Notes: a model not told the origin generated them from the sequence alone. A DNA stretch of 32,000 bases from Clostridia bacterium (GCA_017450465.1 JAFSUW010000022.1:30410-62409), one strand, 5' to 3'. Shown: positions 1,227-6,037, counted from the first letter of the stretch. Numbers and translations: made by a program.

Positions 1227-2694
1227 TCATTCCTTTATTACTTGGTACTGCAATAATCGTATCATGCAAAACTTTTCTTCCCTCATTTGCAACAAATGGG
1301 ACAAGGTAAGGGACACCGAGTACTTCCATCTGGCTTAAATAATACACAATTACCATTATGCCAAAGGATAATCCAAATAGTCCAGCAATTGATGATGCAA
1401 TAACTAGCAATAACCTACAGATTCTAAAACTGTTCGAAAGCGGTTGATACGGCATTACAAAATCTGCTATACCCGCTATTGCTATTACTACAACTACAGC
1501 TGGTGATATTATTTTTGCATTGACTGCTGCGTCCCCTATCACCAAACCACCAATTATAGAAATGGTTGCACCAATAGATTTTGGTAATCGCAAACTTGCT
1601 TCAAGTAATATCTCAAACGCAAGTAGCATTCCAAGTACTTCAAGCGTTGTTGGGAATGGTACACCTTCCTTACTCTCGATTATTGAAGCAATCAAACTTG
1701 CCGGTATCATTTCATGATGAAATGTAGTAATTGCAACATAAAAACCTGGCAAAATTAATGTTAACGTTGCACAAAAATATCTCATAAAACGTATAAAAGA
1801 ACTAATGAAATAGTTTTCGTCGTAATCTTCTGGGGCCTGAAAAAACATATTAAATACACCAGGGACAATATATCCTACTGGTAACCCATCTACCAAAATC
1901 CCCACTTTTCCATCTAATATATTTGAACAAAATTTATCTACTCTTTCAGTAAATAAAACTTGTGGAAAAAATGAATATTTGTTATCGTTTATCGCATTTT
2001 TTAAAATATTAGAAGATATTACATCTTCAGATTTAATTTTTTCTATTCTTGATATGACTTTATTTAGTATATCCTTATCTGTAATATTAGTAAGGTAAAC
2101 TACTTGTATAGACGTTTTAGTGGTTATTCCTACAGTAATGTCAAAAAATCTTAAACTTACAGATTTTACTTTTTTTCTAATTAAACTTGTATTCACTCTT
2201 ATATTTTCAACAAACGCCTCTTGTGAGCCAAGTAATGCACTCTCATTTGGTGGAGTCGTAATACTTCTACCTGCTAATTTTTTTGCGTCAAAAACTACTG
2301 CTTTCTTTAATGAATCAAAAACAAGTACTGTTAACCCCTTTAATATGCTATCTACTGCCTTTGATAAATCTTCTACTATTTTTTGATCAAAGTGATATAT
2401 TATACCATCTGTAACTAAGTTAAATAATTCTTTTTCATTTTTTGCTCTCAATACTTTTTCATTAGACGCTAATGGTTTTAAAATAAAATTATCAACAATA
2501 TTTGTATCAACCATACCATCTATTCCAAATGCAGTGATATTAAAATCTTTATCATTATTTATATAAACTTTTTTTACAATTATATCTGAACTATCTCCTA
2601 AAACTTCTTTTACGTTTTTTGAAGATAAACTTCCAAGAATTTCATTGTCTTTAGTAAATTCTACTTTTTTATTTATTCGCCAAAAATTAAACAT
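1213..2694 (-). CDS. Spore germination receptor A subunit (GerAA/GerKA family)
   Basis: 493 aa. Soluble N-terminal half with GerA-family stretches (RSITTPPNESALLGSQEAFVENIRVNTSLIRKK, FPQVLFTERVD), then a C-terminal half with about 5 hydrophobic helices. Coupled to the Ger(x)C gene. Confidence 0.85.
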   Translation of the reverse strand: MFNFWRINKKVEFTKDNEILGSLSSKNVKEVLGDSSDIIVKKVYINNDKDFNITAFGIDGMVDTNIVDNFILKPLASNEKVLRAKNEKELFNLVTDGIIYHFDQKIVEDLSKAVDSILKGLTVLVFDSLKKAVVFDAKKLAGRSITTPPNESALLGSQEAFVENIRVNTSLIRKKVKSVSLRFFDITVGITTKTSIQVVYLTNITDKDILNKVISRIEKIKSEDVISSNILKNAINDNKYSFFPQVLFTERVDKFCSNILDGKVGILVDGLPVGYIVPGVFNMFFQAPEDYDENYFISSFIRFMRYFCATLTLILPGFYVAITTFHHEMIPASLIASIIESKEGVPFPTTLEVLGMLLAFEILLEASLRLPKSIGATISIIGGLVIGDAAVNAKIISPAVVVVIAIAGIADFVMPYQPLSNSFRICRLLLVIASSIAGLFGLSFGIMVIVYYLSQMEVLGVPYLVPFVANEGRKVLHDTIIAVPSNKGMNDDE

Positions 2695-3199: not shown

Positions 3200-3215
3200 C
3201 ACCCGTTATTTTTTT
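3185..3215. terminator. Bidirectional intrinsic terminator shared by convergent genes
   Basis: AAAAATAACGGGT-aac-ACCCGTTATTTTT: perfect stem with an A-run on one side and a T-run on the other. It overlaps both stop codons (3197-3199 plus strand, 3206-3208 minus strand). Confidence 0.75.
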
Positions 3216-4489
3216 ATGCCATAAAGTGAAGATAAAACTTCAAAATTCGTCCTAAAGTAATTTGTTATTGTCCAAAAACTTACTCCTCCTAAATCATATT
3301 TATTTACTAATCGTAACCTTGCCTCTATGCTTCTTGCATCATCAAACCATACTATATGTAACTTTCCATTTTTATCATAATAATTAAAATATGGTGCTTG
3401 AGCTTTAGAATCATATTTTATTTCCGCCCCTACATCTATTGCAAGATTTACCGCCGCTATGTTAGATAGACTCCTTGCTACTGTTCCTTGCCTATATGGC
3501 AAAGTCCAATCATAACCATAATTAGGCATTCCCATAAGTATTTTAAGAGGCGGAATTCTTGTTACTGCATATTTTAACACTTGCTCTACTCTATTTATTG
3601 GTGCTACCGCTTGTGGCTCACCTCTACTATATCCCCATTCATAAGTCATTAAAACAACAAAATCGGCAAGGGTTCCATGAAATGCATAATCATGTGCTTC
3701 ATATAATAAGCCCTGTTGATTATCACTTATTTTAGGTGCTAGTGCAGTTGATATAGTATAACCCTGTGGCTTAAAACGTTCTACTACTTTTCTTAGAAAG
3801 TTATTATAATTTTCTTTATCTGATGGATAGATATATTCAAAATCTATATTAATTCCAGAATATCCTTTACTTTTTAAGAGATATTCAATATTTCCAAGTA
3901 AAGTATCCTGTACTTCTTCACTATTCAGTATTAAACTTACCAATTCACTATTAAAGCCACCACTTTCACCTATATTAGTTATAACCATAAATGGCAAAGT
4001 GTTTTCCGCTCTTGCCATTCTTATTATATTTTCATCATTAATAGGTACAAGTAATCCATTTTCACGCACTTCATAACTAAACACACTTAAGAAAGATAAA
4101 TAGCTAAGTGACATCTTTAACGTGTTCATATTTATACTTGGAAATGCATAACCATTAACATATATATTTTTTAAAACCTCATTATTTTTAGGGACTATTA
4201 TTTTTTGTCCTGGATAAATTCTTCCTGGGTTTTTTATATCTGGATTAACCGCAAGAATTTGCGACACACTTATATTATATCTTCTTGCTATTCTATATAA
4301 ATTTTCACCATTTTTTATTACATATGTTATATATTCTGCCGGTATAATAAGAGTTTGCCCAATGGTAAGCTTACTTGCATCCTTAAGCTGGTTTATATCT
4401 ATTATTTTTTCTTCAGGTACATTATACCTATTTGCTAATTTATATACCGTATCATTTCTTATTACTTTATGTATAAACAAATAAATCAC
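3206..4489 (-). CDS. sleL: Spore cortex-lytic N-acetylglucosaminidase-like protein, two LysM domains plus GH18 domain (YaaH/SleL type)
   Basis: 427 aa. Two N-terminal LysM repeats (TVYKLANRYNV...GQTLIIP and NLYRIARRYNI...GQKIIVP). GH18 catalytic motif GINIDFEYI. Long stretches matching my memory of B. subtilis YaaH (YEAHDY, DFVVLMTYEWGYS, PQAV.PI, YGYDWTLPY, AQAPYF, VWFDDARSI). The annotated GTG start may instead be the TTG three codons downstream. Confidence 0.85.
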   Translation of the reverse strand: MIYLFIHKVIRNDTVYKLANRYNVPEEKIIDINQLKDASKLTIGQTLIIPAEYITYVIKNGENLYRIARRYNISVSQILAVNPDIKNPGRIYPGQKIIVPKNNEVLKNIYVNGYAFPSINMNTLKMSLSYLSFLSVFSYEVRENGLLVPINDENIIRMARAENTLPFMVITNIGESGGFNSELVSLILNSEEVQDTLLGNIEYLLKSKGYSGINIDFEYIYPSDKENYNNFLRKVVERFKPQGYTISTALAPKISDNQQGLLYEAHDYAFHGTLADFVVLMTYEWGYSRGEPQAVAPINRVEQVLKYAVTRIPPLKILMGMPNYGYDWTLPYRQGTVARSLSNIAAVNLAIDVGAEIKYDSKAQAPYFNYYDKNGKLHIVWFDDARSIEARLRLVNKYDLGGVSFWTITNYFRTNFEVLSSLYGIKK

Positions 4490-4544
4490 ATCCTTTTATA
4501 ACAAATATATGTCTTGTGATTTATTTTCATAACAAATTTTAAAC

Positions 4545-4584
4545 AAAAAAAATGGCGCGGCCTCCATGTTTTCGGTGCCACGCC
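4545..4584 (-). terminator. Intrinsic terminator ending the large ncRNA
   Basis: Sense: GGCGUGGC-A-CC-gaaaacau-GG-AG-GCCGCGCC, an 8-bp GC stem with one G-U plus a 2-bp extension, followed by A-UUUUUUUU. Confidence 0.8.
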
Positions 4585-5207
4585 TTTATATGTTCGATAA
4601 GCCAATGCGCCTTTGACCTACCGCTTTATAAGTTCCAATACTGCCGATTCTCCGTCTTGAACTTTCAACTTGATGGATATTTCCCCTCTTTAATAGCACA
4701 CCACTCGGGCCGGCTTTACCCGGAACACTTCGGCGTTACTTCACAAGACCCTCGACGCGCCACCTCTTCGACTGACCTGGCACGTTTTAAGCACCACGCC
4801 CTTCGCGGGGGGTATGACACCTCGCTTTCCCTTAGCACACTTCCCGCCTCGCCCTACGCTTTGGCGTTCCTGCACCACTGGAATAGCCCTGCTACTATAT
4901 CGCTATCTTCAAGGACAAACACGTCCTGCCTGGACTTCCACCTACCACATCGCACATAACTTAGCCGCTATCTATCACGTCTCATGCTCTTGCACTGTAC
5001 TCTCGCGTCGCTGCTACTCCATATGTTTCGTCCACAACGCTCGCACCTTGTGCTCCAGCACTCACTCGTGCCAAACAGCTTTCCAAGCTACCTTCGCTTT
5101 TCGTGCTACAACATCGCCCCGCTACTCCATATGTTTCGTCAAGGGTTCATTAGCACTCACGGTAAGTTTCTTTTCCAGCCCCTCCCTCTTCGGGAAGGAT
5201 ATCAACT

Positions 5208-5241
5208 AAAAAGCTCTGCTTCGGGAAACCAAAGCAGAGCT
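5208..5241 (-). terminator. Riboswitch expression-platform terminator (internal to the large transcript)
   Basis: Sense: AGCUCUGCUU-ugguuucccg-AAGCAGAGCU, a perfect 10-bp stem, followed by UUUU. The left arm and loop (GCUUUGGUUU) are complementary to aptamer segment AAACCAAGC, giving an alternative antiterminator pairing. Confidence 0.65.
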
Positions 5242-5257
5242 AAAAATTCAACTCACT

Positions 5258-5346
5258 TTCTTCGGCAACCCGGCTTCCATAGTCTTTCGACTTTAGGACC
5301 GATGGCTTTGTGCCCCAAGCTTTCGCTTGGTTTACCATTTCGGAAC
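5258..5346 (-). promoter_or_regulatory. c-di-GMP-I (GEMM-I) riboswitch aptamer
   Basis: Sense: GGUAAACC-AAGC-GAAA-GCUU-GGGGCACAAAGCC-AUCGG-UCCUAAAG-UC-GAAA-GA-CUAUGGAAGCCGGGUUGCCGAAG. It aligns block by block with V. cholerae Vc2 as I remember it: GGCAAACC-AUUC-GAAA-GAGU-GGGACGCAAAGCC-UCCGG-CCUAAACC...GGUAGGUAGCGGGGUUACCGAUGG. P1 hairpin carries a GAAA tetraloop. P2 carries the CCUAAAG/UAUGG tetraloop-receptor halves. Confidence 0.85.
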
Positions 5347-5356
5347 TTACAAATAT

Positions 5357-5386
5357 ATTATATCATTTATTAACATAAAAAGTCAA
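5357..5386 (-). promoter_or_regulatory. Sigma-A promoter of the riboswitch/large ncRNA transcript
   Basis: Sense: TTGACT-18 nt-TATAAT with an extended -10 (TGATATAAT). The predicted start is near G at 5350. Confidence 0.7.
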
Positions 5387-5419
5387 TACTTTTTTGAAAT
5401 TTTTTTTACTTTTTTTATT

Positions 5420-6037
5420 TTACTCCTCTTTCGCATAATTATCCGGTATTTCAAACAGTTTTTCATCAACTTCATTTGTGCATTTTACTACCTCAAAAAT
5501 ATTTTCTTTTATTTCAAGATACTCAAATGCTCCATCATAAATGTTGTAATAAAATCTTATTATATCATCATCTTTTTTTATTTCTTCATAACTATACTGT
5601 GCACCCATTATTTCTGCTAAACCACTTTCAAAATCACTATAATTCATATCTGCTATTGATTTATCAAATAGTATAAAATCATTTGAATAATCCATGTCTT
5701 CGTTTAATTTATATGTTTTGTTATCATGGTAGATAGTATAAAACTTACCATCTTTTTTTAATGTTCCTACAGAAAGTAACCCATCTACCCTTGTGTAAAT
5801 ATCTTCACCATTCTTGGCATATGTCATATTTATTTTTTCAAGACCATTTGCTATATCTTCAATTAAAGCAAGTTCCACTAAAAATGGTTTATCTGCATTT
5901 ATTTTTGTTTGATATAAAGTTATTGTTTTCCTTTGTGTAACCTCATGTGGTGACACATCTGGTTTTAATATTAAAAGTAATGCTACTATTATAATTATTA
6001 CAATTATAGTAATAAATCTTTTTCGCTTTTTATTCAT
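5420..6037 (-). CDS. Hypothetical membrane-anchored or secreted protein
   Basis: 205 aa. Basic N-terminus (MNKKRKRF) followed by a single hydrophobic helix, then a soluble Y/D/K-rich domain. GGAGGAATA RBS upstream. No family recognised. Confidence 0.5.
   Translation of the reverse strand: MNKKRKRFITIIVIIIIVALLLILKPDVSPHEVTQRKTITLYQTKINADKPFLVELALIEDIANGLEKINMTYAKNGEDIYTRVDGLLSVGTLKKDGKFYTIYHDNKTYKLNEDMDYSNDFILFDKSIADMNYSDFESGLAEIMGAQYSYEEIKKDDDIIRFYYNIYDGAFEYLEIKENIFEVVKCTNEVDEKLFEIPDNYAKEE

Follow-up and report, generated by a model that had tools for sequence, protein, structure and literature searches.

Repeated hairpin modules with a putative sarcin-ricin core in a large RNA downstream of a c-di-GMP-I riboswitch of uncultured Clostridia

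Background

The minus strand of a 32,000-nt stretch of DNA from a Clostridia bacterium (GCA_017450465.1 JAFSUW010000022.1:30410-62409; the whole stretch is called the window here, and positions are counted from its first nucleotide) encodes a large RNA in which a 20-nt sequence is present twice. In a first-pass annotation, each copy was placed in a loop of about 21 nt exposing the palindrome CAUAUG, and kissing contacts between such loops were proposed, with protein binding as the alternative. The locus thus raises the question of what the repeats are: loops that pair with one another, or structured sites for some other partner. The host appears to be an uncultured, small-genome, spore-forming bacterium of the Clostridia type (GerA, GerAC and SleL-like genes are present), and the repeats were followed from its genome into diverged homologues of the RNA.

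Results

Organization of the locus

In minus-strand order, a promoter-like region is followed by a c-di-GMP-I riboswitch aptamer (5261-5346; 78.7 bits with Rfam RF01051, for which the gathering score is 35), the intrinsic terminator of its expression platform (5207-5241; a 13-bp inverted repeat, 5212-5224 with 5229-5241, and then a U run), a GC-rich RNA of about 650 nt that bears the repeats (4545-5205), a second intrinsic terminator at the 3' end of this RNA (4545-4584; a helix and then a U run), and a LysM-GH18 gene of the YaaH/SleL-like type (3206-4489). The 5' arm of the riboswitch terminator is 74% complementary to the 5' half of the aptamer at 5318-5336, which suggests that the riboswitch is an OFF switch in which the ligand would favour termination. 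The GC content of the large RNA is 52-60%, compared to about 27% in its flanks, its folding z-score is -3.6, and no open reading frame was found on the minus strand of the GC-rich stretch (approximately 5205 to 4545). Among the covariance models of Rfam 15, nothing credible beyond c-di-GMP-I matched positions 4400-5450 at E<=10; weak matches to the PyrG leader, IMES-2 and others were discarded as noise.

Long antisense open reading frames cross the GC-rich RNA (4552-4959, 4814-5209 and 4984-5373 on the plus strand of the window; 215-640 on the minus strand of a homologous contig, L035), and one of them is annotated as a 141-aa gene in a JGI record, probably a spurious call on RNA-coding DNA. 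Directly upstream of the riboswitch promoter is an open reading frame of 205 aa (5420-6037, minus strand) without a Pfam domain; a search of 5.8 billion proteins returned no homologue except itself, which made it useless for synteny. The genome has three further c-di-GMP-I riboswitches (C27:26031-26115, C37:20474-20563 and C4:10491-10580), and relatives in the same family have 3 to 6 each, which is many for a genome size of 1.3-1.7 Mb.

Homologues of the large RNA

Four diverged homologues of the large RNA were found, all on metagenome contigs, so that five lineages including the window could be compared. L039, a GenBank metagenome contig, was found with a degenerate two-copy pattern, and the others were reached by synteny through orthologues of GH18 and DUF1622 genes: L035 (JGI 3300029305; RNA at 166-1048), in which the RNA precedes a GH18 orthologue of 67% amino-acid identity, and L058 (JGI, from the same sample as L035 but another species; RNA at 3236-4045, minus strand) and L065 (Logan SRR27608055; RNA at 1706-2630, minus strand) through DUF1622 orthologues. 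At the other loci reached by synteny (L036, L057, L059 and L060-L064), the RNA is absent or the contig ends before it. Two ENA contigs are 100% identical to the window over the RNA and its flanks and added no information.

The order riboswitch, terminator, RNA, terminator is common to all five lineages, with RNA lengths of 650-925 nt, and the helix of the 3' terminator shows compensatory changes among the five, with a U run after it. The c-di-GMP-I aptamer is also found upstream of the RNA in L035, L039 and L065, where it was the sole Rfam match (gathering threshold or E<=10); in L058 only its 3' half is visible and the contig end cuts off the rest. The downstream gene varies: it encodes GH18/LysM in the window (3206-4489) and L035, an AI-2E permease in L058 (2030-3169) and L065 (457-1611), and a convergently transcribed DUF1622 protein in L039 (1019-1387). 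Because the downstream genes differ among lineages, the large RNA is, as judged by gene order, its own transcription unit and not a leader.

The comparison is limited mainly by the rarity of the family, of which just five lineages, all uncultured, are known. When the RNA was compared by BLASTN with 60 relatives, the riboswitch platform alone matched, in one relative (G008), and there were no matches in plasmid and phage collections. A search with nhmmer of 30 c-di-GMP riboswitch loci of the same order found neither a homologue of the RNA nor a comparable GC island downstream. The exact 20-mer had no matches in genome contigs or metagenome contigs, because the central bases of the repeat vary among lineages (see below). 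With one mismatch allowed, the repeat was confined to the window's own genome among 400 genomes of the order; 13 matches elsewhere were rejected as AT-rich, apparently coding sequence (translation D-E-T-x-G-V). The two-copy pattern had no true match in a collection of species-representative genomes, its four false positives (Fibrobacter intestinalis, L038, L040 and L041) being tandem repeats of coding type without the GAC prefix. Such repeats, in which GAAAC-N4-GGAGTAG occurs by chance, are unrelated to the repeat of the large RNA (L037, Fibrobacter intestinalis NZ_FUWU01000014.1, approximately 3650-4350; also L038, L040 and L041). A model of the repeat with its closing stem (R1) gave no matches in 150 genomes of the class.

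Two hairpin modules in the window

The perfect 20-nt direct repeat, GACGAAACAUAUGGAGUAGC in RNA sense and GCTACTCCATATGTTTCGTC on the plus strand, is indeed present at 5121-5140 and at 5013-5032; shuffling the 666-nt RNA 300 times produced no exact repeat of more than 13 nt. The closing helices pair as the first-pass annotation had them, CCCU at 5142-5145 with GGGG at 5117-5120 and GCGUUGU at 5034-5040 with 5005-5011, and both hairpins are formed in the minimum-free-energy fold of the whole RNA. Only the 3' arm of the second helix had been misread: the window has GCGACGC there, and the reported GCAGCGC is the sequence of L039, both of which pair fully. A second short sequence, GUGAGUGCU, does occur twice (5152-5160 and 5057-5065), but the copies lie 11 and 24 nt upstream of the repeats. 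They belong to helices other than the closing stems, and retention is poor: the first copy alone is found in L039, with one mismatch, and neither is found in the three longer homologues.

Each repeat with its closing stem is termed a module here, and the 20 nt themselves its core. Module 1 (5117-5145, minus strand) comprises the stem CCCU/GGGG, a junction U at 5141 and the core at 5121-5140; it sits on an outer helix (GUGCUA at 5151-5156 with UAGCAC at 5103-5108) and scores 29.1 bits with R1. Module 2 (5005-5040, minus strand), which scores 52.7 bits, has the stem GCGUUGU/GCGACGC, a G·A junction (5033/5012), its core at 5013-5032 and the central bases AUAU at 5021-5024, and tips an irregular arm of about 180 nt rich in compensatory changes. 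No further modules were found with R1 in the 1.47-Mb genome; only the two of the window matched.

A supposed third, degenerate copy at 4888-4900 turned out to be something else. The hairpin in which it lies (4882-4907, minus strand) shares only UAGUAGC (4891-4897) with the modules, has no GAA strand opposite, and is not matched by R1. The sequence UAGUAGC(R)AGG is nonetheless a conserved element of the RNA, present once and at the corresponding place in all five lineages, and the stem of its hairpin changes compatibly (AUAGC/GCUAU in the window, GUAGC/GCUGU in L039). A complementarity of GCUAUUCCA at 4879-4887 to UGGAGUAGC was considered and rejected, not being conserved in L039.

The best-conserved stretch of the RNA is in its 3' domain (approximately 4610-4665 of the window, minus strand; approximately 915-970 of L035), where AUAUYCAUCAAGUUGRAARUU..GGACGG(A)GRAAUCGGC..GGAACUU is near-identical in the five lineages; RNAalifold pairs GUUGR with YCGGC (alignment columns 67-71 and 90-94) and UYC with the GGA of GGAACUU (columns 59-61 and 101-103).

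An invariant core with variable central bases and copy number

The window and L039 have two modules each, L058 has three, and L035 and L065 have four, a total of 15 that overstates the number of independent observations since the window and L039 are close and the copies are a mixture of paralogues and orthologues. The core, GACGAAAC-NNNN-GGAGUAGC, is invariant at its 8+8 defined bases in 13 of the 15 modules; the other two have AGUGAAAC and GAUGAAAC, each with C3 changed to U and the pair with G kept. The four central bases are the sole variable part of the core and are found as nine different sequences with the pattern R-Y-A-H: AUAU twice in the window, GUAU twice in L039, ACAC, ACAU, GCAA and AUAC in L035, GUAA, AUAA and AUAA in L058, and GAAA, AUAA, GUAA and AUAA in L065. 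Central bases are often equal within a lineage (AUAU twice, GUAU twice, AUAA two or three times), and one and the same A/G change separates the window from L039 in each of the two modules (window 5129-5132 and 5021-5024; L039 429-432 and 536-539), which points to gene conversion between modules or selection for equal loops.

Modules 1 and 2 are at conserved places, starting near positions 66-72 and 170-174 of the RNA. Variation in copy number is due to a second block of about 300 nt that is absent from the window and L039 and carries two modules in L035 and L065; in the longer homologues (L035, L065 and L058) this block, with one or two modules, lies between a conserved hairpin with the loop GUGUUU and the UAGUAGC element. 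A two-module block has therefore been duplicated or lost within the family.

Covariation of the closing stems

Below the core, the stems are unlike in every copy and yet covary across the 15 modules of the five lineages. The earlier suggestion that a common architecture with different stem sequences reflects selection on structure is borne out, the core being kept in 15 copies while the closing stems covary. Each stem has 4-9 bp of free sequence and nearly always ends in a U·G pair. Two classes were distinguished by the junction with the core: type 1 has a one-base bulge (U or A), as in module 1 of the window, and type 2 a G·A junction, as in module 2. In every two-module block a type 1 module is followed by one of type 2.

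In type 2 stems, 96.3% of the cells of the alignment are paired and six of nine pairs are changed on both sides, with a covariation score of 0.657 compared to 0.248; whichever the measure, shuffles did as well in at most 5 of 500 cases. Pairing in type 1 is 87%. When the partner strand was slid by 1-2 columns, pairing fell to 15-46% over both classes (15-28% for type 2). A separate check on eight modules gave 37 paired cells out of 40, compared to 29.6 in shuffles, none of 5000 reaching 37, and stem position 2 alone shows CG, GC, UA and AU. In RNAalifold predictions from three and from five sequences, both modules form the tips of arms in which compensatory changes are found. Unlike these freely changing stems, the Watson-Crick pairs of the core never covary.

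A putative sarcin-ricin fold of the core

Numbered from 1 to 20, the core places G4-A5-A6-A7 opposite G14-A15-G16-U17-A18, with C3-G19 on one side of this internal loop and C8-G13 on the other, in register; U·G replaces C3-G19 in two copies. The sequence AGUA/GAA is the one derived for sarcin-ricin motifs, the known alternatives for the core strands being AGUA or GGUA opposite GAA or AAA (PMC1865062), and the motif is framed by cWW pairs, with G·A documented as a natural lower tSH (trans sugar-Hoogsteen) pair (PMC8450098). All 15 modules have A15-G16-U17-A18 opposite G4-A5-A6, cWW pairs flank the loop on both sides, and G14·A7 corresponds to the G2-A12 variant described in PMC8450098. We consider it somewhat better than an even bet, from base identities and register, that the invariant strands form a sarcin-ricin (bulged-G, S-turn) internal loop. 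The contacts would be A18·G4 (sheared), U17·A5, a bulged G16, A15·A6 and G14·A7, within a frame of C3-G19 and C8-G13 and with G1-C20 beneath a bulged A2. In module 1 (minus strand) this would correspond to the pairs G1-C20 (5140/5121), C3-G19 (5138/5122) and C8-G13 (5133/5128), the strands GAAA (5134-5137) and GAGUA (5123-5127), and the tetraloop AUAU (5129-5132). Nearest-neighbour folding prefers A2-U17 and C3-G16, and the invariant bases fit either pairing. The loop of 21 nt of the first-pass annotation is thus probably not open, and would instead be a structured internal loop followed by one C-G pair and a 4-nt loop.

The predicted fold shares with the sarcin-ricin loop of 23S rRNA helix H95 the strands AGUA/GAA, the G·A lower tSH pair and the framing Watson-Crick pairs. 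It differs in its reversed orientation, the tetraloop of the module adjoining the lower tSH side, and in being repeated two to four times in a non-ribosomal RNA. Compared to the generic motif, the modules add the invariant G1, A2 and C20 and the U·G pair that tops the stem. Two other known motifs were rejected: a K-turn, there being no tandem G·A adjoining a stem in the right register, and the 11-nt GAAA-tetraloop receptor, since the UAUGG of the window's loop is not kept in the homologues.

Discussion

Possible docking sites for a trans-acting partner

Sarcin-ricin motifs are docking surfaces for proteins and for RNA. The reading that we prefer, with a probability of roughly one half, is that the modules are identical sites at which a single trans-acting partner, most likely a protein, would dock. 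Each repeat would be the conserved tip of a hairpin arm, built in layers from a stem of free sequence through a one-base bulge or G·A junction and the invariant strands GACGAAAC and GGAGUAGC to a variable 4-nt loop. The partner would read the modules by sequence as well as by shape, because the adjacent stems drift but no covariation is seen in the Watson-Crick pairs of the core; 13 of 15 copies agree in all 16 core bases although the neighbouring GH18 orthologues share only 67% amino-acid identity. Because the copy number is two, three or four, the sites would be equivalent and additive and not unique tertiary contacts, and the RNA would act as a multivalent scaffold or sponge with two to four tips, depending on the lineage. 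It would be made only upon read-through of the c-di-GMP-I riboswitch, probably when c-di-GMP is low, and with a riboswitch of the OFF type c-di-GMP would set the level of the RNA and hence the free concentration or localisation of the partner.

More tentatively, the partner may be a novel RNA-binding protein, which would make the RNA a c-di-GMP-controlled RNP scaffold or sponge of spore-forming Clostridia. The five lineages have no neighbouring gene in common that could be taken as a candidate partner. A sponge that mimics the binding sites of target transcripts, as EutX and CsrB do, is not supported, because the module is unique to this RNA in the 1.47-Mb genome; a dedicated RNP would fit.

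The repeated hairpin with its 16-nt motif offers a concrete and testable handle on the RNA family. Its small size suits it to pull-downs, crystallography or probing, and a dosage series already exists in nature as the variants with two, three and four copies.

Other interpretations of the modules

The interpretation that comes closest, although we think it unlikely, keeps the structure and changes the partner: the modules would be RNA-RNA docking elements, within or between molecules and independent of the palindrome, in which the sarcin-ricin platform or GNRA-like tetraloops enter helical receptors, much as OLE, ROOL and GOLLD assemble from RNA alone. The RNA is large, GC-rich and highly structured with many GNRA loops, the modules are at arm tips, and four of the seven type 1 loops are GNRA (GCAA, GUAA twice, GAAA); A-minor and loop contacts hold known ornate RNAs together (PMC12286853), and a structural role would also suit the presence of the module nowhere else in the genome. 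However, a unique tertiary fold should not tolerate two, three or four copies of one contact, the loop is not GNRA in 11 of the 15 copies, no receptor was identified, and invariant Watson-Crick pairs in the core are more typical of a partner that reads sequence.

A less probable interpretation involves the hairpin GGAC-GUGUUU-GUCC (4913-4926, minus strand, about 100 nt 3' of module 2; 444-457 in L035 and 632-645 in L039), the loop of which is complementary to the AAAC-R-Y of 14 of the 15 modules. Module bases A5-A6-A7-C8-R9-Y10 would pair with GUGUUU, either as a loop-loop contact or as a toggle that competes with the sarcin-ricin fold. In each of the five lineages the hairpin is found at RNA position 273-280, always equally far beyond module 2; its loop is invariant, and its stem shows a single G-C to G·U change. 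The match extends over six of six positions in those 14 modules, and positions 9 and 10 vary only as A/G and U/C, which keeps the U and G partners. Transitions are, however, the commonest mutations, which weakens this last point, and one side never changes, so that there is no true covariation. The pairing is also difficult to reconcile with a single GUGUUU loop facing two to four modules, with RNAalifold closing that loop by a G·U pair that leaves 4 nt, and with the module with the GAAA loop, which breaks the pattern.

Symmetric kissing contacts of an exposed CAUAUG, within or between molecules, as first envisaged, have become very improbable. CAUAUG is self-complementary in the window as noted at the outset (six of six Watson-Crick pairs with itself or the sister loop), both loops of the window have it, and both loops of L039 have CGUAUG, which can pair with itself only through two G·U pairs. 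Strict palindromes, however, are found in two of the 15 loops, those of the window, and 11 of the 15 are unable to self-pair: the 11 loops of L035, L058 and L065 (CACACG, CACAUG, CGCAAG, CAUACG, CGUAAG, CAUAAG and CGAAAG) pair with themselves or a sister loop at no more than four of six positions, and the invariant C and G account for two of these. In OLE (L9.3) and GOLLD (L21a), symmetric kissing loops switch from palindrome to palindrome (PMC12286853), whereas the homologues' loops lack the palindrome and show no such switching; the homologues thus contradict the kissing model. Furthermore, the C8-G13 pair, if formed, leaves only four loop nucleotides. That the palindrome appears to be incidental spares effort on kissing-loop experiments.

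Recent duplication or gene conversion alone, without function, is just as hard to credit as an account of the identity of the copies: loops tend to match within a lineage (window, L039, L058 and L065), hinting at homogenisation, but lineages with GH18 orthologues of 67% amino-acid identity still share all 16 core bases, the stems adjoining the core have diverged and covary, and conversion tracts would not end exactly at the core borders in every copy.

Comparison with known regulatory and structural RNAs

EutX of Enterococcus and Rli55 of Listeria are noncoding RNAs controlled by AdoCbl riboswitches, with ANTAR-binding hairpins that sequester EutV. Both have been reviewed (PMC5821096). As with EutX and Rli55, a riboswitch and terminator would decide the full-length synthesis of a noncoding RNA with (here putative) protein-binding hairpins, and in the five lineages the aptamer and terminator are directly upstream of a noncoding RNA that has its own terminator. 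The differences lie in the ligand (c-di-GMP instead of AdoCbl), in the length of the RNA (650-925 nt instead of about 200) and in the hairpins (predicted sarcin-ricin type instead of dual hexaloops). In addition, the leaders of target mRNAs bear the same hairpins as EutX, whereas this genome has no module outside the large RNA: R1 finds two modules genome-wide, and no candidate binding protein was found.

Like the CsrB/RsmZ sponges, the large RNA has one short conserved hairpin containing GGA, repeated in variable copy number in a noncoding RNA. The conserved part is, however, a structured 16 nt here and a GGA loop in CsrB/RsmZ, and CsrA (PF02599) was not found in the window's genome, which is 94% complete, in a search that was positive for the E. 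coli, B. subtilis and T. maritima controls.

OLE, ROOL and GOLLD are homo-oligomers held by kissing loops and A-minor contacts (PMC12286853). The large RNA resembles them in being a large, GC-rich, hairpin-dense bacterial RNA. Unlike them, it has no Rfam match, its candidate palindromic loop is neither conserved nor palindromically covarying, and it is gated by a riboswitch. On these comparative grounds the large RNA is an undescribed family gated by a predicted c-di-GMP riboswitch. To our knowledge, nearly all c-di-GMP riboswitches described so far control protein-coding genes; if the reading preferred here is correct, c-di-GMP would in these bacteria act through a large RNA instead of a protein gene.
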